DNA of 64,000 nt from Bacillota bacterium (GTDB lineage: Bacteria > Bacillota > DTU030). The notes under the pieces are model-generated. The model had not been told where the DNA came from. It was given only the letters and a program-made list of their open reading frames with translations, and did no database searches. The stretch spans positions 14,895 to 78,894 of the forward strand of contig JAAYSG010000037.1 of NCBI GenBank assembly GCA_012518435.1, given 5' to 3'. Below are positions 9,827-38,077 of the stretch, in pieces. The position numbers and the translations under genes were made by a program. The number at the start of each line of letters is the position of its first letter. Position 1 is the first letter of the stretch.

Positions 9827-10639
9827 TCATTTGACCTCCTGCCAAGCCAAAGCCACAGTATTTGCAATGATTTCCGCCCAGGAACCCCCCAGGTCCGCTG
9901 CGCCTTTTCTACCGTAAAGGAAATACTCCCTATTGCCCTTAGCACCACTGAGGGGGGAAAAGGTCAGACCCAGTATTCCAAATCCCAAGCGCCGGGTTAC
10001 TAAAATTACATCATGCAGTACTTCCCGGTGAACAGCTGGATCCCGAACAACGCCCCCCCGGCCTACTTTTTCCGGGCCGGCCTCAAACTGAGGCTTTATT
10101 AGGGCCACCACTTCACCATGGGGAAGGAGGATTTCCTCCACTGCAGGCAGCACCTTTTCCAGGGAAATAAAGGAGACATCTATGGTGGCCAAATCCACCC
10201 TTTCCGCAAGTTGGTCCGGCTTAAGATGGCGGATGTTGGTCCGCTCCATTACCACAACCCGGGGATCCTGCCGCAGGCACCAGGCCAACTGACCCCAACC
10301 CACATCCACAGCATAAACCCTCCGGGCACCATGTTTTAAGGCACAATGGGTAAAACCACCGGTTGAGGCCCCCACGTCCAGGACAACTTTCTCCCCCAGC
10401 TTAATTTCGAAAACCCGCAGGGCCTTCTCCAGCTTGAGCCCTCCCCTACTCACATAGGGATTATCGTCGGCCAAAATTCGCAGAGTGGCTTCCCGCCTAA
10501 CCCGAGTGCCAGCCTTGTCAATTTTTTCCCCATCAACCAAAATTAAACCCGCCATGATGGCCCCTTGGGCCCGTTGCCGGCTTTCATAAAACCCCCGCTC
10601 TACCAAAAGTATATCCAGCCGTTCCTTCTCCTTAGACAT
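9827..10639 (-). CDS. tlyA: TlyA family rRNA 2'-O-methyltransferase (hemolysin A-like)
   Basis: N-terminal S4 domain and an FtsJ-like methyltransferase domain ([12 protein letters not shown]). Its position between dxs and argR is conserved. Confidence 0.8.
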
Positions 10640-12563
10640 GACCCATCCCTTGTCCCGATAAATTTCGCAGCCGCTGTGGATGTTTCAACAATCTCCCAAC
10701 GGCCGCCACAATCCCGGCCGCTGTCAATTCATTTTCCGCCAAGAGGTAATCCCGTGAACCCTGCTCAACAAATTCATCCCCATAGCCCAAGATCTCCACC
10801 CGGCAGTCCTGGACACCCTCCTTGGCCAACAATTCCAACACTGCACTGCCAAAACCGCCCTGACGGGCATGGTCTTCCACAGTTACTATTTTCTTAACAC
10901 TGCGGGCCTGCTGCAAAATAAGCTCCTTGTCCAGGGGCTTGACAAAGCGGGCGTTTATAACCGCCACAGCAAGGCCAGTTGTGGCCAACATTTCCGCCGC
11001 CTCCAAGGCCCGACCCACCATGGGCCCCAGGGCCAAAATAGCAGCGTCCGAACCCTCCCTGAGGAGCTCTGCCCTGCCAATGGGCAAGGGAAGGGGGTTT
11101 TTCACAAGTTGGGCCCCCTCCCCCGCACCCCGGGGATAGCGAAGGGCAATGGGTCCGGAAGAATGGCGAAGGGCAGTCACCAGCATCCGCTGGAGCTCCG
11201 CCTCATCCTTGGGTGCCATCAAGGTCATACCCGGTATGTGGCGAAGAAAGGCCAGGTCAAAGACCCCATGGTGGGTGGGTCCATCCTCCCCCACAACCCC
11301 ACCCCGGTCAATGGCAAAAATAACGGGCAAACCCGGAAGGCAGACATCGTGGACAATCTGATCATAGGCCCGCTGCAAAAACGTTGAATAGATGGCAACA
11401 ACGGGTCGTAAACCCGCCGTCGCCAGCCCCGCAGCCAGGGAAACAGCATGCTGTTCCGCAATGCCCACATCGAAAAAACGCCGGGGAAACCTTTTCGCCA
11501 GCATATCCAATCCCGTCCCGGCGGGCATGGCCGCCGTAATACCAACAATATCCGCCTCTTCCTCCGATAATTGCACCAAGGTCTCGCCGAAGACCTGGGT
11601 ATAGGAAGGTGGAACACCCGCCTTCTTTTTTGCCCTTCCCGATACGGGGTCAAAGGCCCCAATACCATGAAAACGATGGGGCTGGTCCTCCGCCGGGGGG
11701 TATCCTTTGCCCTTCGTTGTCACAACATGAAGGAGCACCGGCCCTTTAACCTTACGGGCATTGACAAGGGCCCCCTTTAGTTGGGGAAGGTCATGCCCAT
11801 CTATGGGACCCAAGTATGTAAAACCCAACTCCTCAAAGAGGACACCCCTCACCAGCAAATATTTAAGGCTGTCCTTTAACCTTTCCACGGACTTGACAAC
11901 CTGCCCCCCAATGGCCGGTATTTTCCGCAATATAAATTCAATATCGGCCTTAATTTTTCCATAGGCGGGATCGGTACGCAACCGGCCCAAGTATGATGAC
12001 AAGGCCCCTACATTGGGGGCAATGGACATCTCATTATCATTTAATATCACAAGTAAATTTGTACCCAAATGGCCGGCATTGTTAAGTCCCTCCCAGGCCA
12101 TTCCCGCCGTCAAGGCCCCATCACCAATAACGGCACAGACACTATAGTCCTCACCCTTTAAATCCCGGGCCAGGGCTAGGCCCAAGGCAGAAGAAATAGA
12201 CGTACTGGTATGACCCGTCCCAATCACATCATGGGGGCTTTCCTCTGGTTTGGGAAAACCGCTGAGGCCACCGGCAGTGCGGATTGTCCGAAACTCCTTT
12301 CGCCGACCTGTCAGTAATTTATGGACATAGCTCTGGTGCCCCACATCCCAAACAATTTTGTCCCGGGGACTGCACAGTACACTATGAAGGGCCAGGGTTA
12401 ATTCAACCACACCCAAGTTGGGGGCCAGATGCCCCCCATTGCGGGATACAGTTTCCACTATTTCCTTCCTTATTTCCCCGGCCAGCTGGACTAATTCAGA
12501 ACAAGTAAGCCCCTGGAGATCCCTAGGACTGTTGATTCGTTCCAACCATTGTCCCAATTTCAT
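10632..12563 (-). CDS. dxs: 1-deoxy-D-xylulose-5-phosphate synthase
   Basis: 643 aa. TPP-binding motif ([18 protein letters not shown]), a transketolase-like fold and a conserved N-terminus. Confidence 0.95.
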
Positions 12564-12564
12564 T

Positions 12565-13179
12565 TCACCTCCGCCGCATCCTTCCCTTTTCCGCCAGAAT
12601 TTGTAAACCCAGCTTCAATTCAAGCCATGCCAAAAGGCAGCCAACCCGATGGGTTATTTCTTGGCAACGATGGAGGGCAAAATACTTGCCCGCAGCCTTT
12701 CCACCCACCGTAAAGGCAGCAACCAAGGCCACAATAAGAAGGGAAGCCACCGCCTGCTTGGCCACCAAACCCAAAAGAAAAAGATTAAAGACAATACTGG
12801 CAGCAGCCGCCCCACTCACCGTACCGCAAATGTCGCCCACCACATCGTTGCAAAAACTGCTAACCCGATCGGCATGGCGGATTAGGCGAATGGCCTGGAC
12901 TGAACCAAATACCTTTTTGGCCGCCATGGAATGAAAGGAGGATTCACCAGTGGCGGTAACGGCTATACCAATTATATCAAAAACTATCCCGGTAAATATA
13001 ATCAAGAACAAGATCGATACAGCGGCAACTAAACCAAATAGGGTTAGGATAGAATTAGCCATCAGTGTCAGCACTATTGACAAAATAAAGGTTACCAAGC
13101 CCATATAAAGGCCCTGACGCAGGGGACCTCTATCCTTATTTAGCCTATTTTTTCCCCCAGAAGCCAAATTCTCCCCCAC
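12565..13179 (-). CDS. oapA: Small four-transmembrane membrane protein, OapA-like (OLE-associated protein A)
   Basis: About 180-200 aa with four predicted transmembrane helices. It is directly upstream of dxs with a 1-nt gap and directly downstream of a long structured non-coding region and ispA, which is the arrangement of the described ole-oapA locus. Confidence 0.5.
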
Positions 13180-13199
13180 CCAATCTTAAATATAGAATA

Positions 13200-13900
13200 A
13201 TAAAAGGGAAAGCCTTCCCCCTTGAAGTATCTTTCCCCATTCAGAACCATGTATGTTTAAGGAGGACAGGTGCTAGCAAGCCGGGTAAACATTGCGGCTT
13301 AAGGTCTAGTAGGTTTTCCCAGCAATGCACCAGGATGTCGCCATCCGGGCGGTTTCCCTTCACCGCATTACTCCATGCCGTCACCGGGCATAGGACTAGA
13401 TTACCACTTAGTCCACACTGCAATCCCCGACCCGCCCCAATTCCAAATTGGGCAGTCTAGGAGCTTTCCTCGACAGCCAACCACCCTTTAGCCTCTTTTG
13501 CAATAGGAGTTTCACAGTCAAATCCCGAATTATCCGGGCCCAAGGGAAAATCCGGTTACCACCTGTATCCGCCCCTACCACTCAAGGCAGGCTACACTGT
13601 ACACAGCTTCGCACCGCATACAGGTTCACCCCAAGCCGTAGCCCTTCAATGGACCACATACTTGGGTCTCCACGGAAGCAGGGTCAGGATCCACATGCCA
13701 TTGTGGACTGCCCTTGCCCCCTTAACCCCCAGCACCAGCCCCCGACTGGGCGTCAGCGGCCAGCACCAGGGACTTCATCGATGTGCCCTTAACGGATTTT
13801 TAGCCCCGCCTTCAAGGGTGCTTGCACTGACTAGAATACTGCACCACCTGTCCATTTTGCAATTATCAAGCAGGGGAAATTATATCATATCTTCAACAAC
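13200..13900 (-). ncRNA. ole: Candidate OLE (ornate large extremophilic) RNA
   Basis: A roughly 750-nt region between ispA and oapA with no plausible ORF; the three ORFs in the track overlap and have odd composition. It contains many GC-rich imperfect hairpins and sits in the diagnostic ispA-ole-oapA-dxs-tlyA context. Boundaries are approximate. Confidence 0.5.
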
Positions 13901-13928
13901 GGTGCAACCCACACAAATTCCCATGCTG

Positions 13929-14837
13929 TCAATTATCCCTCTCCAAGACATAGTCGATGAGCTGTCGTAGGGGTTGAGCCGAAGGACCAAAGCGTTTTAG
14001 GGCCTCAAGTGCCTTGTCCCTTCCCTCCCGTGCCGCCCCCCTGGATTCATCGAGGCCAAATAGGGCGGGATAAGTTGCCTTACCCCTTTTGGCATCTGTG
14101 CCTACGGGCTTACCCATTCTTTCATCATCCCCGACTACATCAAGGATATCATCGGTGATTTGAAATACCAGGCCAAACTCTTCAGCATATCTAGTGAGGG
14201 CAGCCAAATCGTCGGGTCCAGCGCCGGAGAGAAGGGCCCCCGTACGCACGGAAACCCGGAGCAAGGCCCCTGTTTTACTGCGATGGATGTAGCGCAGGGT
14301 AGCGGCATCAATGTTTTTTCCCTCGGAAATAATATCCACCGTCTGCCCCCCCACCATTCCCCCGGGGCCAGCCGCCGCAGCTACCTCCCCTATAACCTGG
14401 CGCAATAGGGCATCACGGTTAGGGGGAAGATCGCAGTGGGCCAAAATCTCAAAAGCCTTGGTCAATAAGGCGTCACCGGCCAGGATGGCCACGGCCTCGC
14501 CATAAACCTTATGATTGGCCAGCCGCCCCCGGCGAAAATCGTCATCATCCATGGCCGGTAAATCATCATGGATAAGGGAATAGGTGTGGATAAGTTCAAT
14601 GGCACAGGCCGCTTCCAAAACATCCTCATCCCTTCCCCCCACCGTCTCCGCAGCCGCCAGGACCAAAATCGGCCGCAGCCTCTTCCCCCCAGCAAAGATA
14701 CTATAGCCCATGGCCTCATGTAATTGGGGGGGGACATCCTCGGCCGGCGCAAGCAGGTTTTTTAAGGTCTCGTCTATCTTCTTCGCCTTTTCCCTTATAT
14801 ATTGCCCCAATCCCATTATCCTTCCTCCCCCTCCCAA
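13929..14837 (-). CDS. ispA: Farnesyl diphosphate synthase (geranyltranstransferase)
   Basis: Two aspartate-rich motifs (LIHDDLPAMDDDD and FQITDDILD). Confidence 0.9.
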   Translation of the reverse strand: MGGGGRIMGLGQYIREKAKKIDETLKNLLAPAEDVPPQLHEAMGYSIFAGGKRLRPILVLAAAETVGGRDEDVLEAACAIELIHTYSLIHDDLPAMDDDDFRRGRLANHKVYGEAVAILAGDALLTKAFEILAHCDLPPNRDALLRQVIGEVAAAAGPGGMVGGQTVDIISEGKNIDAATLRYIHRSKTGALLRVSVRTGALLSGAGPDDLAALTRYAEEFGLVFQITDDILDVVGDDERMGKPVGTDAKRGKATYPALFGLDESRGAAREGRDKALEALKRFGPSAQPLRQLIDYVLERDN

Positions 14838-22623: not shown

Positions 22624-23643
22624 TCAGCGCAGCGGATTTGCCAACAAGGAGGTGTTTGTTTCACCATCATACACCGCCTCCAGAGTACCCACACCCAGGG
22701 AAAAACCAAGAAATAGTATGCGTTGGAAAATCCCTCCGGCCAAGATATGGGCCAGGCTTGGGCGTCTTCTAAGGCTGTCCAGGCTATGTCCATGGGCCGT
22801 TGCCAATACCTTCACCCCCGCATGCAGGGCTTCGCCAATGGCCTCAGCATCCTCCCCATGCCCCAGTTCATCGGTGGCAATAACCTGGGGTGACATGGAT
22901 CGGACCAACATCATCATCCCTTCCGCCTTGGGACAGCCATCCAAAATGTCGGTCCGGGGCCCCAAATCCGCCTGGGGCACACCGGCACTACAGGCAGCAA
23001 TTTCCGAGCGTTCGTCCACTACCCCCACCTTCAAACCGGAAAAACCCAAGGAGGGTATCCCCCAACTTATCTGCCGGATGAGATCCCGCAAAAGAGTTGT
23101 CTTTCCCCCCAGGGGGGGTGATACGATGAGGGAATGGAATATGGTATTTCTTTTTTTATCAAGAAGGTAGGGGATTGCCTTGTCGCCCACACCGGGTAAC
23201 TCCCTGGCTAGGCGTATATTCATACCGGTAACATGCTTTAACAGCCTTACCCGCCCCTTTTCCAGAACCACCCTCCCGGTGAGCCCCACCCGGTGTCCAC
23301 CCTCCAGGGTTAAAAAACCTTGGCGCAGTTCCTCGGCAAAACTGTAAATGGAACAGCCACTCATGAGTTCTAAGGTCCTTGTCATGTCATCCCCCGTTAC
23401 AATATAGGCCCCAGGGGCTGAGGAAGCCATCCCCCCCTGGGGGCCAAGGAAACAATCCCCTTGGGCCAATACCAGCATAAGGGGTCTATTTTGCCGCAGG
23501 CGAATTTCCTCCACCTTTGCCCAAGTATCCCGGGGAATCTTCTTTAGGATATTACGGATCGGCACCGCCAAGGTGACCAAGATTTGCTCCAGATCCAAAA
23601 CCTTCCCCCTAACCCCCCCGTCCAGCAGCGCCAGAGCAGACAC
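22624..23643 (-). CDS. spoIIIAA: Stage III sporulation protein AA (secretion-type ATPase)
   Basis: Walker A motif PPLGGKTTLLRDL. First gene of the operon. Confidence 0.85.
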   Translation of the reverse strand: MSALALLDGGVRGKVLDLEQILVTLAVPIRNILKKIPRDTWAKVEEIRLRQNRPLMLVLAQGDCFLGPQGGMASSAPGAYIVTGDDMTRTLELMSGCSIYSFAEELRQGFLTLEGGHRVGLTGRVVLEKGRVRLLKHVTGMNIRLARELPGVGDKAIPYLLDKKRNTIFHSLIVSPPLGGKTTLLRDLIRQISWGIPSLGFSGLKVGVVDERSEIAACSAGVPQADLGPRTDILDGCPKAEGMMMLVRSMSPQVIATDELGHGEDAEAIGEALHAGVKVLATAHGHSLDSLRRRPSLAHILAGGIFQRILFLGFSLGVGTLEAVYDGETNTSLLANPLR

Positions 23644-23703
23644 AAAAACCCCCCCTTCCCTTCTATAGATATTATCCTCCTGGCAAAATTATGAAAATAA
23701 AAT

Positions 23704-23733
23704 AAAAAAACTGTCCCCCATTTGTGGACAGCC
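23704..23733 (-). terminator. Rho-independent terminator downstream of the dam-like gene
   Basis: On the minus strand, GGCUGUCC-ACAAAUGGG-GGACAG is followed by UUUUUUU. Confidence 0.5.
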
Positions 23734-23771
23734 ATCTACGACGAAACTCAAGGATAGAACCCCATTTTATG

Positions 23772-24692
23772 TTAATAATTCCTGATGATTAATTCCGTAA
23801 TTTCACCCCTTTTCTTTCCATGGCAGTTTATATTTCGCTTGGCAAAAACCCGCTCCATGCGAAAACCCCGATATAAATGGTCGAAAAAATCATCCCGGGG
23901 ATCCCTTGCCACCGGATCAGAGTTGCTAAGAAGTAAAAATGCATTCCTTTGGTCCAACTTTCGGAAATACTTGGCCAGGCGGATCTGGTCTTCATCGGTA
24001 AAATCCCCCCCGGTATAACTTGTAAACCTTGCCGTCCTTGTCAATGGTCTATAGGGCGGATCGAAATAGACCAGACTGCCCGCCTGGACATAGGCTTCAG
24101 AGGAGAGGAAATCTGCACAGAGCAGATTTACCCCCGCCAGTGCTTTACTCACCTCCCTGATGTTGGCTGCAGCACAAATGGCAGGTTTTTTGTAACGCCC
24201 GTGGGGGACATTAAATTCACCTCTTTTATTCTGCCTAAATAAACCATTGAAGCAAGTCTTGTTTAAAAATATTAACTGACTGGCCCGCCGGCTCCAGTCT
24301 TTTCCGTAAGACCCATAATCAAAGGTCAACCTTTGTCGGTTATATTGTTGCCTAATTTGATAGTATAGTTCCCTTCTACCAGAAGTATCCAAGCATAAAT
24401 ACTCTTCCTCCAGCCGGTCTAAATGAGAAATTAAGGCCTCCGGTTCCCGTTGCACCACCTTGTAAGCCAGCATCAGTTCCTTGTTAATATCCATTAAATA
24501 CACATTTTCCAGTGCAAACATTTCTTGAAGGTAAAAGAAGAAGGCCCCTCCCCCCAAAAAAGGTTCCACATAGGTGCTAATGGTTTTTGATTCCTTTATT
24601 TGCGCCGGCAATCTTCGGGATAACTCCGCCAATAACTGTGTTTTGCCCCCCGCCCATTTTAAGAAGGGTTTTGCCGAAAATCCCCTGCTCAC
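23772..24692 (-). CDS. dam: Dam-family DNA N6-adenine methyltransferase (orphan, no adjacent restriction endonuclease)
   Basis: N-terminal KPFLKWAGGK motif and a catalytic DPPY motif. At 306 aa it is the typical size of Dam/DpnM/MboIA-type methyltransferases. No cognate endonuclease ORF lies nearby. Confidence 0.85.
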   Translation of the reverse strand: MSRGFSAKPFLKWAGGKTQLLAELSRRLPAQIKESKTISTYVEPFLGGGAFFFYLQEMFALENVYLMDINKELMLAYKVVQREPEALISHLDRLEEEYLCLDTSGRRELYYQIRQQYNRQRLTFDYGSYGKDWSRRASQLIFLNKTCFNGLFRQNKRGEFNVPHGRYKKPAICAAANIREVSKALAGVNLLCADFLSSEAYVQAGSLVYFDPPYRPLTRTARFTSYTGGDFTDEDQIRLAKYFRKLDQRNAFLLLSNSDPVARDPRDDFFDHLYRGFRMERVFAKRNINCHGKKRGEITELIIRNY

Positions 24693-24699
24693 TGGTGTT

Positions 24700-25532
24700 C
24701 ACCCCCTCCCAATATTATCCACTGGCACTGCTCCTTGTCAAATTTCTTCGCAGCGGGCCGCCTTGGGGTACACCTTCTGGGCTGTCTTCAAATATTCCCT
24801 CCACCATAACTCCTGCTTGTTTGCCAGGTCCATGTCTACCACGAAGCGATATCCTTCTGTGATGTCGGCCCGGGCCTTTTGTAGCGCCCCGTGGGCGCTC
24901 CTTCTTGGTCGGAAGCCAAAGCTGTTGTTTGAAAACTGTTCTTCAAAGAAGGGGACAGGACTTGGCATATGGCTTTTCCCGGTGTTCGCGAAGGTATGGA
25001 AGAAGTCCTTCAACTTTCATGCCGTCGATGCCACCGGCACCCTTGTTCTTCTTTACCCGCTTGTAGGCACGGTTTAGATTGTCTCGGGTTAATATTTGCT
25101 CCAGCAGTCCTACGGTCTGTTTGGTGGTGTTGGTGATGTCGGTTTTGGTCATCTTGGGTGGCGCGCACACTACTGCATATTCTTTCCGTTCCGCGGATAC
25201 CTTTTGCAGATAGTCTTCATATCGAAGTTGTCCGTGTTTTACTAGGCCACTTGCAGTGACTGTCATTGACCCTCACCCCCGATGGTTCGGCCCTTCCGCT
25301 CTGCCACATTTACTGCGGGCAATTCCGTGTAGTTATTGGGCTTTGACTTGTTAAGCAGTCTTACCCTTGCTTACAGCCTTATGTGGTTTCTATTCGTCAG
25401 ACCGGGGGTTTGCCTACACCTTCCTTCAGATTCCACCTCGCGATGGATACCCTTGGTGTTCGGCTATTCCCTTCCCACTACCGGGCGGGTTCGGGACTTG
25501 CACCCTTTAGATTGCATCCATGCCGGGCGCAC
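24700..25532 (-). mobile_element. Degenerate bacterial class C-like group II intron (5' portion only)
   Basis: The minus strand begins with GUGCGCC immediately after terminator hairpin + UUUUUUAU, which is the characteristic class C insertion site. About 380 nt of ribozyme domains precede the RT start. The 3' part of the RT and ribozyme domains V/VI are absent. Confidence 0.6.
24738..25266 (-). pseudogene. Truncated, frameshifted group II intron reverse transcriptase/maturase
   Basis: Two overlapping frames encode LLEQILTRDNLNRAYKRVKKNKGAGGIDGM (RT domain 0/1) and FGFRPRRSAHGALQKARADITEGYRFVVDMDL (RT domain 2). Only about 170 aa of the expected more than 400 aa are present. Confidence 0.7.
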
Positions 25533-25570
25533 ATAAAAAAGGGCGGCTCCTGGCCGCCCCACTTAATTGC
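25533..25570 (-). terminator. Rho-independent terminator of the zinc-ribbon gene (and group II intron target site)
   Basis: On the minus strand, GGGGCGGCCAGGAGCCGCCC is followed by UUUUUUAU. Confidence 0.65.
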
Positions 25571-25591
25571 CTCACAAATTGAAGGGATATT

Positions 25592-26120
25592 TTAAAAATC
25601 TATTTCAGCATCCCCAACTGCCTCATCCTTGGCTTCAAATTCTTCTAATTCTGCATCGTCGTCTTCATCATCATCCCCATCTTCATAGTCATCTTCATAA
25701 TCATAGTCATAGTCTTCATAGTCAAAATCGTCATCTTCGGTGCTAAAGACAACAGCGCCACAATTGGGACAGGTTATTTCAATTATTGTCTCTTCATCTT
25801 CGTCAAGGGCCCCCTCCTCAAAGAAGACCGTTTCCCCACATTCAGGACATTCAACCTCGATGTACTCCCCATCCTCATGGCCAATGCCCTCGATATCGTC
25901 GTAATAGTCGTCCTCCAGTTCTCCCAGGCTTTCATCAACGGCGCCTACATACTCCTCCAGATCCTGGTAGTCACCGGCTATTTCTTCCATCTCAGCGGTT
26001 ATTTCAGCCAAAACTTCCAGTATTCCCCCCAAAATCTTCCCTTCCCCAGTATCCTGTTTGAGGTCCAGGCCTTCAGCCAACCCCTGTAAGTAGGCAATCC
26101 TTTCCATGAGCTCCCGCATG
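25592..26120 (-). CDS. Acidic zinc-ribbon protein of unknown function
   Basis: Two CxxC pairs (CPECG and CPNCG) and an extremely acidic Asp/Glu/Tyr-rich C-terminus (DDDFDYEDYDYDYEDDYEDGDDDEDDD). The probable start is ATG at 26120, which has a strong ribosome-binding site (GGAAGGGAGGAG); the ORF-track start at 26149 overlaps that site. Confidence 0.5.
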
Positions 26121-26196
26121 TGACACTCCTCCCTTCCTTGCTTTACCAATTTGATAGTTATAGTATAACACAGGAATGCAAAAATAACACCTGGAG

Positions 26197-26754
26197 TTAA
26201 ACCCGTTCCATGTATTCTCTAGAGCGGGTATCAACCCTAATTACATCACCTTCCTCAATAAAAAGGGGAACCAACACCTCGGCCCCGGTTTCCAATACGG
26301 CCCTTTTAGTCGCTCCAGATACTGTGTCTCCCCTAATTCCCGGTTCAGTCTCCGTAATGGCCAATTCAACAAAATTCGGCAGTTCTATACCAATGACATC
26401 CCCCTTGTATTCCATAACATAGATGAGCATATTCTCCTTGAGAAGGCTAATGGTATCTCCCAATTCTTCCTGGGGAAAATTAATCTGTTCAAAGCTTTCA
26501 GTGTCCATAAAGACCAAAAATTCCCCCGAACGATATAAGTATTGCATCTCCCTTCTTTCCACATGGGCCCGGCTAACCTTTTCCCCGGCCCGAAAGGTTT
26601 TGTCAATGGTCGCCTCCGTGCGAATATTCTTCAGTTTGCTGCGAACAAAGGCGGCACCCTTGCCCGGCTTAACATGCTGAAAATATACTACCGTATATAC
26701 TTCCCCATCCAGCTCAATGGTCATCCCAGTCTTAAAATCATTGGTTGAAATCAC
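26197..26754 (-). CDS. efp: Translation elongation factor P
   Basis: 185 aa. The [15 protein letters not shown] loop carries the conserved modified lysine. Confidence 0.9.
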
Positions 26755-30858: not shown

Positions 30859-31443
30859 CTAATCCTCCCCCGCGGGATGGGGAAGGGAGAAAACCTCCAG
30901 GGATATATCCGCCTCCACCCCTTCAGTACCGGCAGGCAAAAATAAATCGAGGGCCTGGAGCCTGACAAAGCGAGGAAACTCCGCCAGTAATTCCAAAAAA
31001 CCGGCAATATCCCCGTAGCCGCCCCTCACCCCTATTTGCAAGGAATAAACCGTTAGTTTACCCTCTTCCCTTGTTTCATTCCACTCTAGGAATTGCAAAG
31101 CCAAATCATTAGCCGAAAGGGCCTCGGCCAAAAATAAAAGCAGGGTCGGCTCCGACTTATCGTGGGGAAGTAAATTCACCAGTTCCCGGTAAGATTCATC
31201 CACCTGCCCATAGGTCGCCGCCATATTTCCCTCCTCGACCAGCAGCCCTTTATTCTTGGCAAGGATTTCTTCCTCCTCCCGCACCGCAGCCTGCAAGCTG
31301 TTGAGCTGGGTCCTGAGGGGCCGATAAAGGAAATGATGACCACCAACGGCAAGGAGGACCAGCAACAATGAGAGTAAAAGGTATTTTTCCCTTTTCGTCA
31401 GGGCGGCGTTCAACACCTTCCCTTCCCCCCCGTCCTTACCCAT
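30859..31443 (-). CDS. pilO: Type IV pilus assembly protein PilO
   Basis: N-terminal transmembrane helix, a coiled coil and a periplasmic domain, immediately after pilM and pilN. Confidence 0.6.
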   Translation of the reverse strand: MGKDGGEGKVLNAALTKREKYLLLSLLLVLLAVGGHHFLYRPLRTQLNSLQAAVREEEEILAKNKGLLVEEGNMAATYGQVDESYRELVNLLPHDKSEPTLLLFLAEALSANDLALQFLEWNETREEGKLTVYSLQIGVRGGYGDIAGFLELLAEFPRFVRLQALDLFLPAGTEGVEADISLEVFSLPHPAGED

Positions 31444-31955
31444 CCTTGGATATCAAAGGTCCAGCCACCCTCTTTATCCACCTGCAAATAATTAAGGTCC
31501 ACAGTTGCCAAACTTGGCAGAGCAGTTAATTTGGACAAAAATGTGGCCAGAGCGGGGAGCCCCGTTACCCTACCCTCCAGGACTACCCCCCCATCCGCCG
31601 CGAAGGATATTCTCCTGAGGGTAATTCCTTGCAAATCAAGGCCCCTAATTTCCCGCAAAAGGGCTGGCCAGGGGAGGCGGGTCCCTTCCAATTCTGCCAG
31701 GACTTCCCGCCGCTCCTCAAGGACAAGCATCTTTTTTTCTAATTCCCGGGCCCGCTCCAAGTTAGGGAGTTGATTATGCTCAAACTGCAGTTCCCTTAGC
31801 CGGGCCCGGTAAGCCCCTAGCCGTATGTGGGAAGCAATTAGGCAAATTCCCAAGAGGCAGATGACAATTGCCCCTGCTACCATAGCCAACCTTTGCCGCC
31901 TTTTACCCCGGCGCTGCAAGTTGTAATCGGCAGGCAAAAGGTTAATACCCGCCAT
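31410..31955 (-). CDS. pilN: Type IV pilus assembly protein PilN
   Basis: 181 aa; MAGINLLP... N-terminus followed by a transmembrane helix. Confidence 0.65.
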   Translation of the reverse strand: MAGINLLPADYNLQRRGKRRQRLAMVAGAIVICLLGICLIASHIRLGAYRARLRELQFEHNQLPNLERARELEKKMLVLEERREVLAELEGTRLPWPALLREIRGLDLQGITLRRISFAADGGVVLEGRVTGLPALATFLSKLTALPSLATVDLNYLQVDKEGGWTFDIQGWVRTGGKGRC

Positions 31956-32895
31956 TGGCCACCACCCCCCGCAGACCTAAGCCGATGGCTGCGGCAAACA
32001 AGAACCTTTCTTCCTCAGGTATTTCCGCAAGCCAGGTCAATTTTGTTTTGCCCAAGCCAGCCCACTGGGCCGGTAGGCCAAGTCCAGCGGCAAGTTCCTT
32101 TAGAAGGGAACAATTATCTATTTCCTTGTCGGAGTAAAGGACCAGCCGTTGGGGGGCATCACCCAGGCCATGGGCCTGATAATATTGTAGGGTACTTTTA
32201 CATTCCTGGAGGAGCTCCCCCCTGGTAACAGACAAAGGGGAGCCTTTCCTGACCGGGATCTCCCAAGGGACAACCCTAATAAATGGTATTTTCCCCGGGG
32301 TAGAAATAATAAATGTTATGTATTTGTACTCAATTAAAACGTATAGGGAGACCACTTCCCCCTGGTCCACTGTCCTAAGCAGGGCCAGTGGTTTCGGTTC
32401 CAAAACCTTGGCTTCCAAACCTGATAGGGTCAAACCCTTGAGATAACCCGCGACAATTTCCTTCTCTACCGCAATAAGGAGGTGCTTTCCCAGCCTGGTT
32501 TCTGAAGCCTTTCCATTCCCCGGGGAAAGACAGGCAAAGACCGCCTCCTGGGCGGAAAAGGGCAAGTAGTCCTCCAGCTCCCATTCCAGGGCTTTTTTTA
32601 ATTCCTCCTGGGGAATAATGGGCATGGTAAGCATGCGGTAGTATACCCGGGGGCCACTTAGGGCAAGCAAAACCGGTTTCTTTTTCCCCAACCCCACCTT
32701 GCGCCAAAGTTCCCCAAGGGCCTTCGCCAGTAAGGGGGGATCCACTATGGCACCTGCAGAATAGGCCCGCGGTGGTGTTTCTATCAGCCCAGCCTTGACA
32801 ACCTGGATCTGGGAGGACCTAAGCCGAAGTTTTACAACCTTTATGCTGGCCCCCCCAATATCAACGCCAATATGACTCCTGCGAAAAATTCCCAT
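31942..32895 (-). CDS. pilM: Type IV pilus assembly ATPase-like protein PilM
   Basis: Actin-like ATPase fold with HIGVDIGGASIKVV at the N-terminus. Confidence 0.8.
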   Translation of the reverse strand: MGIFRRSHIGVDIGGASIKVVKLRLRSSQIQVVKAGLIETPPRAYSAGAIVDPPLLAKALGELWRKVGLGKKKPVLLALSGPRVYYRMLTMPIIPQEELKKALEWELEDYLPFSAQEAVFACLSPGNGKASETRLGKHLLIAVEKEIVAGYLKGLTLSGLEAKVLEPKPLALLRTVDQGEVVSLYVLIEYKYITFIISTPGKIPFIRVVPWEIPVRKGSPLSVTRGELLQECKSTLQYYQAHGLGDAPQRLVLYSDKEIDNCSLLKELAAGLGLPAQWAGLGKTKLTWLAEIPEEERFLFAAAIGLGLRGVVANGGY

Positions 32896-32934
32896 CCCTT
32901 CGTTCGCCTTCCCTTCCCACAGCGGCCTCCGGCC

Positions 32935-33249
32935 TCAATGGCGAGGGTTATCCGCCACCTTCTCCACTGCCCGCATGATGGCCATGAGGACGTCAGCTTC
33001 AAACTGACATTCCAATTGGGATACCTTGGCAAAGACTTGCCCCCGGTCAGTTACTATATAACGGGGTGGAAGCTCATTGAGGGCCAGGGCAGCCATGTCC
33101 ATCTTGCATTTTTCACAACCGCATATACCAGGATTATCCGCCAAAAATCTATCCAGGGCGCGCCTTACCACCTCTTCCATGTAATTCTTTAACTTCGCCA
33201 TTCTTCTACCCCCTTCATAATTGTTTCCCCATAACCATTTGCTTGGCAA
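32935..33249 (-). CDS. comFB: ComFB-like late competence protein
   Basis: About 90 aa with a CGCEKCKMDMAALALNELPPRY motif typical of the ComFB family. Confidence 0.55.
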   Translation of the reverse strand: MPSKWLWGNNYEGGRRMAKLKNYMEEVVRRALDRFLADNPGICGCEKCKMDMAALALNELPPRYIVTDRGQVFAKVSQLECQFEADVLMAIMRAVEKVADNPRH

Positions 33250-34260
33250 CTATTGGATCAGATAGGACCTCGTCACACGGTACCACATCTTTTCCAACAC
33301 CAAGGTGGGTGGTAGGTTGTGGAGCAATTCATCCTCCTTCCCACCGTGTCCCCCTATCTTTATCCCACCCCCCAGTTCAACCCCTCCACCAGACCAAACC
33401 TTGCCGCTAATATACCCATCTTCGCCACCTATGCAACAAAACATTCCGGGGGTATACAACAAACCCTTCACCCTTGTAATTCCGGTCAAAAAGATCCCCT
33501 GGGCGGCCATAATAACAAAATTCCCTTCCAAAGCAGCATCCCCCGAAACTACCAAGCTGCCGGTTATCATAAGGACTGCACTGCCGGCAATGCCGTCCCC
33601 TTCCTCTGTTAGTTCAACATCCCCGTCAACATAAATAAAACCTTCCAGTTCCCTTTGTCCAGCTAATTCATCCGGTCTTAGACTCTGCCCCTTTAACTCC
33701 CGCCGGTATAATTCCCAGTCAGCCATTGGGGGAAAGGTGAAATCCTCCATTTTCAGGGAAATATCCATGCCCTGGGGGATCTGGGCCTCCCCGCTGCACA
33801 AAACCCCTCCCTCTACCCGGGGGAATCCCTCCAAACCGGGCGGCAAAATAACATGGAAGTCACCCGCACACATAATTGTCTCCCCAATGGCAATGAGAGG
33901 CCTATGGTCAACCAGCTGAAAACGGGTTGCCAGGCTTCTTTGTACACCTTCCTTCATCCCCCGGGAGGTGACCCTTAAATAATCACCTTCCTCAACTATA
34001 CTAACCTCCGTCTCCCCTCCCCCATCCCACTTGATCCTGAAACCCTCCCTATGGTGGGGCTCCAGGGCCAGGAGGGCGGCCATCTTTTCCAGCCCAGCCT
34101 CGGCCAAGTAAAAGGCCGCCGTGCTGCGATATTGATAAAAAGCCATGCGGGTTTCAACCTGGGCCATTGTTAAGAGGCCAGTACTGAGCAGTGTTACCAC
34201 CAGCAACACCAGCAGGGTAAATATTAGGGCACTCCCCCCTTCCCCTTCTAACACCTTCAC
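33250..34260 (-). CDS. PilX-like minor pilin / pilus-associated protein with a Gly-rich beta-helix-like C-terminus
   Basis: N-terminal hydrophobic pilin-like segment (ALIFTLLVLLVVTLLSTGLL) and a C-terminal half rich in G/V repeats. Confidence 0.45.
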   Translation of the reverse strand: MKVLEGEGGSALIFTLLVLLVVTLLSTGLLTMAQVETRMAFYQYRSTAAFYLAEAGLEKMAALLALEPHHREGFRIKWDGGGETEVSIVEEGDYLRVTSRGMKEGVQRSLATRFQLVDHRPLIAIGETIMCAGDFHVILPPGLEGFPRVEGGVLCSGEAQIPQGMDISLKMEDFTFPPMADWELYRRELKGQSLRPDELAGQRELEGFIYVDGDVELTEEGDGIAGSAVLMITGSLVVSGDAALEGNFVIMAAQGIFLTGITRVKGLLYTPGMFCCIGGEDGYISGKVWSGGGVELGGGIKIGGHGGKEDELLHNLPPTLVLEKMWYRVTRSYLIQ

Positions 34261-34264
34261 CCCT

Positions 34265-34828
34265 TCAACCTCCCTTCCGGAGGTTTCGTAAATAGGCAGA
34301 TGTCACCATCTTTGCTCTAGCCCCTTCTTTTACAGCCTCCACGCTGATCTCCAACAGACCTTCCGAACCTGCCGGGGCTTTAAATTGCACCTGGTCAATA
34401 TACAGGGCAATGGGGTTGTGTCCTCCGGTGTCACGGATAAGGGAATTACCCTGTAGATAGTAACGCACCGATAATATCGGTTCCCCCGCTGTTAACTGGG
34501 GAATCCCCAAACTCACTTCCCCACCATTTTTTAGCTCACAGGTACCACCTGCGCTTAAATCCCGCCAAGTTTTATCAAGGGGAGTGCGATATTTCAAGGA
34601 TAAGGTCTGCTGCAGATCAGGTACCAACTCCGCCAAGACTACCCGGACCTGTTGCTGGACCTCTGTTTGATCATTATTTCGCCTCCACAGGCTTACAGTT
34701 GTCGTATAATATAGAGCAATGGTAGCAAAAACCATACTCAAGAGGGCAGCCGCGATTATCGTTTCCAGGAGGGCAAACCCCTTTTCCCCCTCCCCCGCAA
34801 GCCCTTTTATCACCTTTTTCGACAGCAC
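34265..34828 (-). CDS. Prepilin-type minor pilin (PilW/GspJ-like)
   Basis: Prepilin-like N-terminus: KGFALLETIIAAALLSMV. Confidence 0.5.
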   Translation of the reverse strand: MLSKKVIKGLAGEGEKGFALLETIIAAALLSMVFATIALYYTTTVSLWRRNNDQTEVQQQVRVVLAELVPDLQQTLSLKYRTPLDKTWRDLSAGGTCELKNGGEVSLGIPQLTAGEPILSVRYYLQGNSLIRDTGGHNPIALYIDQVQFKAPAGSEGLLEISVEAVKEGARAKMVTSAYLRNLRKGG

Positions 34829-35232
34829 TGCAGCCTAATCTCCTTTTCCTTTGCCCCCTCATCACCCCAACCAACAACTACAATAATGTTTTCGGTCCCA
34901 TCCCCGTTATCCTCTATCCGGGTGTTTATCCTATAATCAGCCGGCGCCTCTTGTGGCCTATTAAAACCGCCCAGAAGCCCTTCCATTTCCCCCTGGGCCA
35001 GGGATGTGGCAATGGCTATGCGTTCCCCTTCCCGGGTTGCCAAAAAGCCGGTGGTGAGACTGCCAATCAGGGGAAGCAAAATTATCGCCACCAGTACCAG
35101 CGCCACCAGCACTTCTATCAGGGTCATCCCCCTTTCCCCGGACAAGACCCCCATGATTTTACAGTTCCTTTGCCACCCGCACCCGGCCGGCACCGACGGT
35201 AACCATGACATACATCTTTTCTCCCCTTTCAT
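34810..35232 (-). CDS. Prepilin-type minor pilin (PilV/GspI-like)
   Basis: GMTLIEVLVALVLVAIILLP class III signal. The real start is probably the internal Met. Confidence 0.5.
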   Translation of the reverse strand: MKGEKRCMSWLPSVPAGCGWQRNCKIMGVLSGERGMTLIEVLVALVLVAIILLPLIGSLTTGFLATREGERIAIATSLAQGEMEGLLGGFNRPQEAPADYRINTRIEDNGDGTENIIVVVGWGDEGAKEKEIRLQCCRKR

Positions 35233-35725
35233 TTATCAGGGTTATGGTTCCTCCCCGGGAGGGAGCACCCGAGGGGTGAAAGGTAACCTCATTATTGGGA
35301 AAGGTTGTATGCTCTATTTTGACCCCGGTCGGAAGGGTAAAGGTAACCCTCTTTCCACTGGAGTCAACAATGAGACAATATTGTGACTTTAAGATAAATG
35401 TCAGCCAGAAGGATTCCTCCCGAACAACTGCCCGCTGTTGAGTCTGCCGAATTTCCCTGGCCAATTGCTGGGCGGCCTCCTCCAATAGAAACCTTCCCAA
35501 ACTCACTTCTAGGGCGGGCCAAGCAATGGTCGCCAAAATTGAAAGGAGTAGAAGGACAATTATTACCTCAATTAAAGTATAGCCGGCAGAAGCCATTTTC
35601 CCCTCCTTTTCCCATCCCTGCTGCCAAGCCAACGGGGGGTAATGGCTGCGGACCAGGTCCACCCCCACCCAGGCCAGCCTCAATACCAAAGCCGGAAATA
35701 CCAGGCAAGGAGCTGCCTCTCCCAA
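35159..35725 (-). CDS. GspH/FimT-like minor pseudopilin
   Basis: AGYTLIEVIIVLLLLSILATIAWP prepilin leader plus a GspH-like C-terminus. The real start is probably the internal Met. Confidence 0.5.
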   Translation of the reverse strand: MGEAAPCLVFPALVLRLAWVGVDLVRSHYPPLAWQQGWEKEGKMASAGYTLIEVIIVLLLLSILATIAWPALEVSLGRFLLEEAAQQLAREIRQTQQRAVVREESFWLTFILKSQYCLIVDSSGKRVTFTLPTGVKIEHTTFPNNEVTFHPSGAPSRGGTITLINERGEKMYVMVTVGAGRVRVAKEL

Positions 35726-36423
35726 AAAAGGCTAACAATGACAGCAGCGGCAATGTAGGGGGCAAAGGCCACCGTATCCCGCCTACCCTTGATCCCCAAG
35801 AAAAGCAGGCCCAGGGCCCCCATTCCACCCCCTAGAAAGGATAAAAAGAGAATTAAGGGCACCCGCCCTAGGCCCAGCCAGGCCCCCAGGGCCGCCATGA
35901 GTTTAATGTCCCCTCCCCCCATCCCCCCACGGCTGAGAAGGGCGATTGTCGTTAACACCCCGCCCCCCAGTAGGGCTCCGGCAACACTTTCCCATAGGGT
36001 ATTGGGGGGGAAAAGGGCCGAATAAAGGATCCCCATCCCCAGGGCCGGCAAAACAACGGCATCGGGAATAATACCCTCCTTTAAGTCAGTACAGGTTGCC
36101 ACCAGCACAAGGGCTGTAACAGCTGTAGCGGGGAAAAAATCAACGGGGGGAAGGGTAAAATAAAGGGTCGGCAGGAGGAGGCCCATCACCAGTTCCAAGA
36201 GGGGATAGCGGCGGGATATGAGTTTTTGGCAATGGCGGCAGCTTCCCCGCAAAATAATATAGCTCAGTAGGGGAACTAGATCCCGCCATTTCAGCCGCTG
36301 TCCACAGTATGGACAATGGGATGCGGGAAAGAGCAGTGATTCCCCCCGGGGGAGACGGTGGATGCAGACATTTAAAAAGCTGCCCAAAATTGTACCTACT
36401 ATGAAGAAAAAGAAATGCCCCAT
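35680..36423 (-). CDS. pilD: Prepilin peptidase / N-methyltransferase (A24 family)
   Basis: CxxC...CxxC zinc motif (HCPYCGQRL...CRHCQ) followed by polytopic membrane helices. Confidence 0.85.
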   Translation of the reverse strand: MGHFFFFIVGTILGSFLNVCIHRLPRGESLLFPASHCPYCGQRLKWRDLVPLLSYIILRGSCRHCQKLISRRYPLLELVMGLLLPTLYFTLPPVDFFPATAVTALVLVATCTDLKEGIIPDAVVLPALGMGILYSALFPPNTLWESVAGALLGGGVLTTIALLSRGGMGGGDIKLMAALGAWLGLGRVPLILFLSFLGGGMGALGLLFLGIKGRRDTVAFAPYIAAAVIVSLFWERQLLAWYFRLWY

Positions 36424-36447
36424 GGGAACAAGGCCCCCAAAAAGGGA

Positions 36448-36792
36448 TTAACCCTCATGGGTTTCTCCCCCATGATTACAGGAGACACTACCATCTCCCT
36501 GGATTGTATATTCTCCCCCAAGGGGACATTTGGGTTTTTCACGAAGATACTCGCCAATGTCCCCCAAATCCCCGGGGATATCCCCATCCTGAGCAGCCGA
36601 ATAGGCGGCAACGGCTGTCTCAATGGCCTTTATATTGGCTTCACAGGCCTGCCTTTTGGCCCGGGTGGTAAAGCCCGAGAGTTTAGGCACTGCGATGGCG
36701 GCAATAATACCAATAATAACCAGTACTATCATCACTTCCACCAGGGTAAAACCCCTTTGTTTCTTAACAAGGGCAATGCTTTTCCCCAGCAC
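36448..36792 (-). CDS. pilA: Type IV major pilin
   Basis: KKQRG|FTLVEVMIVLVIIGIIAAIAVP class III signal peptide; 114 aa. Confidence 0.75.
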   Translation of the reverse strand: MLGKSIALVKKQRGFTLVEVMIVLVIIGIIAAIAVPKLSGFTTRAKRQACEANIKAIETAVAAYSAAQDGDIPGDLGDIGEYLREKPKCPLGGEYTIQGDGSVSCNHGGETHEG

Positions 36793-36824
36793 AGCTCCAT
36801 CTCCTTCCCCAAGTCAAAGTAATT

Positions 36825-38042
36825 TTATCCCAAGACAGTTACCAAACTGATGAGGGGCAGCATGATGCTGATTACAATAAAACCCACGATTCCAGACACC
36901 AAAAGCACCAAGACCGGTTCCAAAAGGGAAGAAAAACGCGCCAGGATGAAGTCTACCTCCTGCTCATAATAGGCAGAAACCTGGACCAGCATCCTGGGGA
37001 GGGTTCCTGTTTTCTCCCCCGCTGTAACCATCTGGACCACCATGGGGGGAAAAATGGAATTAGCCGCGAAAAGGTCAGAGGGACTCAACCCCTTTTGCAC
37101 TCCTACTTCCACTTCCTTTAGGGCCTGGGTTATAACCCGGTTGCCCGCAGTGTTCTTTACCACGCTCAAGGCAGTCAGGAGGGGGACACCAGCGGCCAAC
37201 AAGGTTCCCGTGGTACGGCAAATTCGGGCCAGGTCAACCTGTAGCAGGACGGAACCCACCCCGGGCAAGGTCAGCAAGAGGCGATCCTTACAAAGGCTAC
37301 CTCCCTCCGTTTGGAGATACAGGTACAGCGCTAGCAATATTAGCAAGGTGCCCCCGACAAGCCAATACCAGCTTCCACTTATAAGCCGGCTGGCCCCCAG
37401 GAGTAGCCGGGTCGGCCAGGGCAGGGACAAGCCAGAAGCAAGAAAAAGGTTAGTAAAGCTGGGAAGAACAAAGGCCACTAGAAAAAAGACGGCGGCCAGG
37501 GAAACCAAGGTAACAACCCCCGGATAGGTTAGGGCCCCCCTTATCTTTTCCTGAAGCCTCTGTTCCCGCTCAAAGTAGTGGGCCATCCAGTCCAGGACAT
37601 CGTCTAATATTCCTCCCGTTTCCCCGGCCTTCACCATATGTACTAGGACAGGAGGGAAAATTCGGGGCTGCCTCCCCAGGGCCTCGGATAGCAAGCTGCC
37701 CCCACTTAAATCCCCTTCCAACACAGACACCGCCCGCCGCAGACGGGGGTTTGGGTGCTGTTCCTTTATGATCCTTAGGGTGGGCGCCAGTTCCAAACCA
37801 GCCGTCGACATGGTTGCCAGTTGGCGGCAGAACAGGGCCAGCTCGCCACTGGATCCCCCGCGCCGAAAGGGCAATCCACCACCCAGCCCAATACCCGGCC
37901 TCTGGGCTCTGATATCCGTTACAAGATAGCCCTTCTCCCTTAACCTGCTCACCGCTTGGTGAATACTGTCGGCCTCAATGGTACCCTTGATTCTTTTTCC
38001 CCTTTGGTTGCGGGCCCGATAGATGAAAGAAGGTGTCATCAT
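36825..38042 (-). CDS. pilC: Type IV pilus platform protein PilC (GspF family)
   Basis: Two GspF repeats; 405 aa. Confidence 0.85.
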   Translation of the reverse strand: MMTPSFIYRARNQRGKRIKGTIEADSIHQAVSRLREKGYLVTDIRAQRPGIGLGGGLPFRRGGSSGELALFCRQLATMSTAGLELAPTLRIIKEQHPNPRLRRAVSVLEGDLSGGSLLSEALGRQPRIFPPVLVHMVKAGETGGILDDVLDWMAHYFEREQRLQEKIRGALTYPGVVTLVSLAAVFFLVAFVLPSFTNLFLASGLSLPWPTRLLLGASRLISGSWYWLVGGTLLILLALYLYLQTEGGSLCKDRLLLTLPGVGSVLLQVDLARICRTTGTLLAAGVPLLTALSVVKNTAGNRVITQALKEVEVGVQKGLSPSDLFAANSIFPPMVVQMVTAGEKTGTLPRMLVQVSAYYEQEVDFILARFSSLLEPVLVLLVSGIVGFIVISIMLPLISLVTVLG

Positions 38043-38077
38043 AAAATAATCCCTTCAAAATTTTGGCCCCCCTCCCC

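Follow-up and report, generated by a model that had tools for sequence, protein, structure and literature searches.

Does the roughly 750-nucleotide (nt) interval downstream of ispA in an uncultured Bacillota bacterium hold the gene of a large structured RNA, and is the small membrane protein encoded next to it the partner of that RNA? The question arises from a 64,000-nt stretch of contig JAAYSG010000037.1 (positions 14,895 to 78,894 of the forward strand), hereafter called the window, in which positions 13180–13928 separate ispA from a gene for a small membrane protein that is followed by dxs and tlyA. A first-pass annotation of this DNA proposed that the interval carries OLE (ornate, large, extremophilic) RNA and that the membrane protein is OLE-associated protein A (OapA). 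This proposal is supported by a covariance model, by the features published for OapA and by synteny. It is almost certain that 13254–13863 on the minus strand is a full-length OLE RNA gene (ole, 610 nt by the Rfam model limits), and that the next gene, oapA (12565–13179, minus strand), encodes its membrane partner, a small CNNM-like membrane protein recognized by its motifs, its linkage and its predicted fold.

Identity and extent of the RNA

The whole window was scanned against the covariance models of Rfam 15. The OLE model, RF01071, matches 13254–13863 on the minus strand with 494.1 bits (E 5.9e-142), or roughly tenfold the gathering score (50). The match is untruncated and spans model positions 1–616 of 616, which bears out the expectation that an OLE covariance model would recognize the interval. 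Identity is found at 239 of the 249 highly conserved (uppercase) consensus positions (96%), and the window copy carries every column that is invariant among the 19 aligned OLE sequences described below. No riboswitch or leader family matches this stretch in the Rfam scan of the window. The stretch is a complete, standard full-length copy of OLE.

The earlier placement of the non-coding region at 13180–13928 is right in that the interval contains OLE, but the RNA itself occupies 13254–13863 with a structured core at 13266–13851. The remainder consists of a promoter-like region upstream of OLE and, downstream, a terminator-like hairpin and the ribosome-binding site of oapA.

Conservation of the fold

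In the window OLE, 147 of the 159 consensus pairs are canonical. The fold was tested on this copy together with 18 OLEs from other genomes or contigs, each confirmed by Rfam at 457–578 bits and aligned with MAFFT. Across the 22 helices tested, 89.6% of the cells are paired, a value in which the window is somewhat favored since the structure was projected from its own row; when the partners are slid by 1–3 columns, the value is 39–47%. Double changes occur at 102 of 147 pairs, the covariation score is 0.519 compared with at most 0.171 in the slid controls, and none of 500 shuffles equaled the observed pairing values.

The core is closed by helix P1, in which ACAGGUG (13851–13845) pairs with CACCUGU (13272–13266) on the minus strand. 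P1 is paired in 94% of the cells over the 19 sequences, with double changes at 5 of its 7 pairs and a covariation of 0.71 that falls to 0.24 or less upon sliding and was reached by none of the 500 shuffles. These positions are marked as unpaired in the consensus structure of RF01071. Because the covarying P1 closes both ends, the folded unit is delimited as 13266–13851.

The first-pass annotation had given as its example of a hairpin the string AAGCCG-11 nt-CGGCUU with CUAG on both flanks. The literal string exists at 13300–13278, but it does not form a conserved hairpin. Only 52.6% of the cells pair locally and 368 of 500 shuffles are equally good, which rules out this local hairpin as part of the OLE fold. 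Its two arms fall instead in the long-range OLE helices 18 and 17, which are 96–97% paired.

Protein-binding determinants in the RNA

In Halalkalibacterium halodurans, the site of OapB consists of the GNRA tetraloop as well as a 1-nt bulge of P13, with a second GNRA loop on P14.1 (PMC7936274). The corresponding P13 hairpin of the window, CUAUG-C-CCG-GUGA-CGG-CAUGG (13374–13395, minus strand), has GUGA as its GNRA tetraloop and a 1-nt bulge. In the fold test this helix (helix 20) is 94.7% paired with 7 of its 8 pairs covarying, and the P14.1 loop of the window reads GCGA. The site of OapC (YbxF) in H. halodurans is a kink-turn (k-turn) made from refolded strands that flank P5 (PMC9723947). By the Rfam alignment, the P5 region and its joining strands, GGGCACAUCGAUGAAGU and GUUAAGG, lie at 13720–13789 on the minus strand. 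Both strands match the consensus except for one deleted A just 5′ of GGGCACAUCGAUGAAGU, and the columns of the k-turn strands are mostly invariant in the 19 sequences.

Full-length OLE is distinguished from variants 1 and 2 by having P7, P8 and P9 as well as the OapB site where P13 ends (PMC11332333). The helices at model positions 198–241, 249–277 and 286–385 are all matched in the window copy and the P13 site is present; the RNA is therefore of the full-length type and not variant 1 or 2. At the level of sequence, every requirement that was examined for OLE is intact.

Identity of the membrane protein

The protein encoded at 12565–13179 has two candidate starts, GTG at 13179 (204 amino acids, aa) and TTG at 13167 (200 aa, with GGGGGAG before the TTG). 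Scans of the 204-aa protein with Pfam (E ≤ 0.001) and NCBIfam gave no family, the threshold of PF01595 (CNNM) was not reached, and a sequence search of the PDB returned a chance match only (E = 2). As the protein has no curated family, its membership was tested by motifs, fold and linkage. It has 1,849 homologs at E ≤ 0.001, the best 120 of which are nearly all 170–235 aa long. The homologs are mostly unnamed, and the source labels, where given, read hypothetical, CNNM domain-containing, CNNM-like or CorB. Although the family counts more than 1,800 homologs and has invariant motifs, neither Pfam-A nor NCBIfam holds an OapA model, and oapA genes therefore go unnamed in annotation.

A DxxxD motif distinguishes OapA from CNNM domains (PMC11332333). 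In the window protein it is D112-V-V-G-D116, and both aspartates are invariant in 33 homologs, as are D68 and GGK161-A-x-G-K165; altogether, the window protein matches at 17 of the 17 columns that are invariant in the 33 sequences. Its sole proline, P19, lies in the N-terminal tail ahead of the first predicted helix, so the characteristic CNNM proline is absent. Basic residues cluster at 83–105 and 198–204. The former group (H83, K88, K89, R98, R101, H102 and R105) lies between helices 2 and 3, the same hydrophobic helices between which the 33 homologs share a conserved basic block, AAKK...R-x-ADR; the latter forms the C-terminal tail KGRMRRR.

The AlphaFold2 (AF2) model has long helices at 19–48, 50–76, 103–135 and 142–170. 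Two broad hydrophobic blocks (22–78 and 113–165) appear in a hydropathy profile, and together with the AF2 helices they are compatible with an arrangement of 2+2 helices. The predicted fold is nearest to the transmembrane domains of CorB/CorC. It is thus a CNNM-like predicted fold without the CNNM proline, CBS or CorC domains, and the relation to the CNNM/CorB/CorC/MpfA Mg2+ transporters (PF01595; PDB 7M1U, 7CFG) is one of predicted fold only. Unlike them, the window protein carries DxxxD, is devoid of both the CorC/HlyC domain and the CBS pair, and would have one transmembrane helix more than the three of CorB. No mpfA (CNNM+CBS+CorC) was found among the approximately 70 open reading frames (ORFs) scanned in the 64-kb window.

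The protein resembles OapA of H. halodurans and Clostridium botulinum in its length of about 200 aa, four predicted long hydrophobic helices, DxxxD, missing CNNM proline, basic loop, basic C-terminal tail and position directly downstream of ole. Its membership was judged by the family motifs and by linkage to OLE, in loci that include the Bacillaceae Halobacillus, Gracilibacillus and Aeribacillus. The product of 12565–13179 is taken to be OapA on these grounds, and its RNA binding and membrane placement would be as in H. halodurans, from which they are carried over.

Linkage of oapA homologs to OLE

Genomic linkage to OLE is the strongest test of membership in the OapA family. A total of 80 oapA-homolog loci from GTDB species genomes and 3 ENA loci were searched by nhmmer with the window OLE. 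Directly upstream and in the same orientation, OLE was found in 76 of the 80 GTDB loci and in all 3 ENA loci, or 79 of 83 in total, and three of the four loci without it are contigs ending less than 210 nt upstream. If the count is restricted to the 64 loci whose upstream flank is 1.7 kb or longer, OLE is directly upstream in 63. Of 20 sampled loci, 19 gave a full-length OLE match in Rfam, among them those of cultured Thermoanaerobacter, Thermoanaerobacterium, Aeribacillus, Thalassobacillus, Gracilibacillus, Lentibacillus and Fervidibacillus. The suggestion that the membrane protein is OapA is upheld by the published features, namely DxxxD in the 33 homologs and the association with OLE in 63 of 64 loci.

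The neighborhood is likewise shared. Of 78 related loci, 71 have dxs downstream in the same orientation; of the 64 loci with enough upstream flank, 39 have an ispA-like gene on the upstream side, again in the same orientation. The gene order claimed for the window, ispA, non-coding region, membrane protein, dxs and tlyA, agrees both with the family matches given below and with this direct measurement on related loci. A literature search for a written account of the ispA/dxs context returned metabolic-engineering papers only.

One locus departs from the rule. In Firmicutes bacterium UBA5435 (DIRN01000097.1, 1131–4983; locus L007), an oapA homolog of 45% identity stands in the usual ispA...oapA-dxs context, and no OLE was detected within 2.5 kb on either side by nhmmer or by Rfam at the gathering score and at E ≤ 1. 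Where ole would be expected, there is an ORF for a membrane protein of about 150 aa. This is the sole such case among the 64 well-flanked loci.

Locus layout and candidate expression signals

The genes xseA-xseB-ispA-ole-oapA-dxs-tlyA form a block on the same (minus) strand. The upstream neighbor of ole is ispA (13929–14837, 908-nt), which encodes farnesyl diphosphate (FPP) synthase and matches PF00348 and NF045485 (379.5 bits). Downstream of oapA are dxs, for 1-deoxy-D-xylulose 5-phosphate (DXP) synthase (10632–12563; TIGR00204, 837 bits), and tlyA, for an rRNA 2′-O-methyltransferase (9827–10639; TIGR00478, 266 bits), which overlaps the end of dxs by 8 nt. The TGA of oapA is at 12567–12565 and the ATG of dxs starts at 12563, in agreement with the 1-nt gap noticed previously.

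A candidate sigma-A promoter of ole lies at 13879–13907 on the minus strand. It has a −35 element TTGCAC (13907–13902), a 17-nt spacer, and a −10 element TATAAT (13884–13879) extended by a TG at 13887–13886 (−15/−14). The predicted transcription start is near 13872, about 9 nt before the start of the Rfam model. Comparison can be made with the nearest GTDB species genome, the anaerobic-digester metagenome-assembled genome (MAG) Bacillota bacterium AS04akNAM_96 (DUTA01000073, locus L001), in which OapA is 71% and OLE 85% identical to those of the window and OLE scores 519 bits. L001 retains the −35, the TG and the −10 (there TATTAT) at the same 17-nt spacing, with a spacer whose sequence has diverged. 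Kept hexamers around a diverged spacer are the pattern that a real promoter would leave, which suggests that the candidate is a promoter, and its footprint provides a testable start site of ole in this clade.

Between the 3′ end of OLE and oapA, a terminator-like hairpin, GGGGAAAG...CUUUCCCU followed by UUUUAUUAUU, is present at 13198–13238 on the minus strand. The site is listed at 13223–13203, and its GGCUUUCCCUUUU core is conserved in L001. Read-through past this weak hairpin into oapA is likely. On the most economical reading, the RNA would be driven by its own promoter, from which some transcripts would continue into oapA-dxs-tlyA, and operon promoters lying further upstream would contribute as well.

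Evaluation of alternative explanations

Several observations weigh against the assignment of the locus to a functional OLE RNA with its OapA partner. Nine consensus pairs of the window OLE are non-canonical and three are gapped, mostly in the variable P9–P10 region. Helices 13 and 14 of this region pair poorly across the 19 sequences (about 53%), because MAFFT cannot align stems of variable length. A consensus promoter scan gave no site near ole at its threshold; the candidate was missed because its −35 fits TTGACA at 3 of 6 positions only. The terminator-like hairpin has a minimum free energy of −15.4 kcal/mol and a z of −1.2, not significantly above shuffles. Genes for the other partners in the OLE ribonucleoprotein (RNP), oapB (ybzG, KOW), oapC (ybxF, L7Ae) and bS21, were not found among the approximately 70 ORFs scanned within the 64-kb window; a genome with OLE would be expected to carry all three and no MpfA.

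The imperfect pairs raise the thought that the RNA is a decaying or non-functional remnant that is kept by its position in an essential operon, and the A deleted from the conserved AAAGGG block and the P7 loop that is 7 nt shorter could be read in the same way. However, 96% of the highly conserved positions are intact, and the score of 494 bits falls inside the range of 457–578 bits spanned by the OLEs of 19 other genomes, cultured species included. The differences from the 85%-identical L001 copy and from other relatives keep the pairing, and the partner oapA is itself intact and conserved, as its match at all invariant columns indicates. A remnant is thus very improbable. A little more room, which is still only a slim chance, is left for a long structured 5′ leader that would act mainly in cis on an oapA-dxs-tlyA mRNA rather than as a stand-alone RNA. 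The RNA precedes oapA by 75–87 nt on the same strand, the hairpin that resembles a terminator is weak, and the 1-nt gap between oapA and dxs makes a single long transcript plausible. Nevertheless, co-transcription with oapA is compatible with an RNP role, the covarying P1 closes the RNA on itself as for a discrete folded unit, and the Rfam scan found no riboswitch or leader family here. Moreover, OLE of H. halodurans acts as part of an RNP, in which it is abundant and has OapA, OapB and OapC as binding partners (PMC9723947, PMC12265935).

The idea that one or more real small proteins are encoded inside the interval has next to no chance of being right. ORFs of at least 60 aa do exist in 13180–13928, and there are just three of them: 13241–13423 on the minus strand (60 aa) and 13448–13792 and 13662–13970 on the plus strand (114 and 102 aa). 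Yet the longest open frame, of 134 codons in the window, is cut to 68 codons in the strain of 99.4% identity and to 63 in the nearest genome, no frame was found to be consistently open across the 19 OLE sequences, and the substitutions track base-pairing and not codon structure. The internal ORFs are therefore rejected as coding, in line with the earlier remark that the interval holds no credible ORF.

Proposed mechanism

A functional OLE RNA with its OapA partner can be placed in the mechanism described for H. halodurans and C. botulinum (PMC12265935, PMC12286853, PMC9723947, PMC7936274, PMC10898510), and it is by analogy with these species that expression, transcript ends, membrane localization and a physiological role may be proposed for the present organism. 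As in H. halodurans and C. botulinum, the RNA of about 600 nt would fold into a many-helix architecture and dimerize. In H. halodurans, OapA binds OLE and localizes the RNA to the membrane; the protein has been suggested to transport divalent cations as a relative of MpfA/CorB, and OLE possibly stands in for the regulatory domains that it lacks (PMC12265935). The window OapA, a putative four-helix CNNM-like divalent-cation transporter, would similarly bind OLE cooperatively and bring the RNA to the membrane. OapB would dock on the GNRA loop and bulge of P13, and OapC on the k-turn beside P5. The resulting RNP would help cells to withstand cold, excess Mg2+ and short-chain alcohols and to get by on poor carbon sources.

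The almost universal position of ole-oapA directly before dxs, often behind ispA, might reflect more than an inherited order, that is, a functional coupling of the OLE RNP to the supply of isoprenoid lipids. With read-through from the ole promoter and a gap of 1 nt between oapA and dxs, OLE transcription would be tied directly to dxs expression. For instance, polyprenyl lipids could help to make room for, or screen, an RNA that has been proposed to span the membrane; alternatively, the OLE RNP could tune the flux of the methylerythritol phosphate (MEP) pathway under membrane stress. We consider such a coupling unlikely.

Comparison with known systems

The window OLE agrees with the full-length type of RF01071 (PMC11332333; model, ole of H. 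halodurans) in its match to all 616 positions, in the conserved blocks and in P7–P9. It shares with the H. halodurans type the GNRA loop and bulge of P13, the GNRA loop of P14.1, the k-turn strands, an oapA directly downstream and a sporulating Bacillota host. No structural difference from the full-length type was found. The shorter P7 loop and the deleted A are features of its lineage; in addition, the P13 bulge is C rather than U, and the RNA is GC-richer, at 55%. The host is uncultured and known from metagenome assemblies only.

The first-pass annotation had suggested that a confirmed locus would add another OLE RNP lineage. This carries little weight, because OLE has been reported in 2,822 GTDB Bacillota genomes covering nearly all classes (PMC11332333) and is already present in the sister genome L001. 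With a standard copy, a standard Rfam model and a phylum in which thousands are catalogued, the importance of the finding is slight beyond correct annotation; it adds the GC-rich sequence of an uncultured lineage to the alignments of OLE and OapA.

GOLLD, ROOL, HEARO and raiA are, like OLE, large and highly structured non-coding RNAs of unknown biochemistry, and OLE, GOLLD and ROOL form homo-oligomers as observed by cryo-electron microscopy (PMC12286853). The membrane link through OapA is a property of OLE and not of GOLLD, ROOL, HEARO or raiA. None of these four has an Rfam match in the window.

Host, close relatives and other features of the window

The nearest genomes to the window are Bacillota MAGs. 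The window encodes Spo0A, SpoIVB and SpoIIIAA-AH (the SpoIIIA operon), and the host is presumably, from its gene content and relatives, an uncultured, spore-forming Bacillota bacterium. OLE hosts are Bacillota, typically anaerobes, extremophiles or spore formers. A correlation of OLE with sporulation is reported in PMC11332333, and the presence of spo0A, spoIVB and spoIIIAA-AH fits it.

An ENA metagenome contig of 131,778 bp (ERZ2647830 NODE_82) agrees with the window at 99.92% identity over 6.6 kb, and a second one (ERZ2648292 NODE_157, L082), which is the strain referred to above, does so at 99.4%. Between the second contig and the window, 30 of the 37 differences in 6.6 kb fall in a single 113-nt patch of OLE from P5.1 to P7 (L082:2430–2537; window 13632–13744). 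Through these changes, 7 of the 13 affected base pairs remain paired. The patch of L082 resembles the general OLE consensus, and the window version resembles that of L001. Either recombination between OLE alleles produced the patch, or it is a chimera of metagenome assembly at conserved OLE blocks.

Elsewhere in the window, RF02001 (group II intron, D1–D4) matches 25284–25447 on the minus strand with 123.8 bits, between spoIIIAA and efp. The match adjoins a D12-class (Dam-type) adenine methyltransferase (neighbors at 23772–24692 and 24943–25266). No D5/D6 was detected at E ≤ 0.1 within 23600–26300, and there is no ORF for a reverse transcriptase/maturase nearby; 25284–25447 probably represents an orphan piece of an intron or residual mobile DNA. 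A cluster resembling those of type IV pili or type II secretion and unrelated to OLE occupies 30859–39610 on the minus strand, downstream of a PmbA/TldD pair. It comprises PilM, PilO, PilX_N, a GspH-like pseudopilin, a prepilin peptidase (A24), T2SSF and a T2SSE ATPase.

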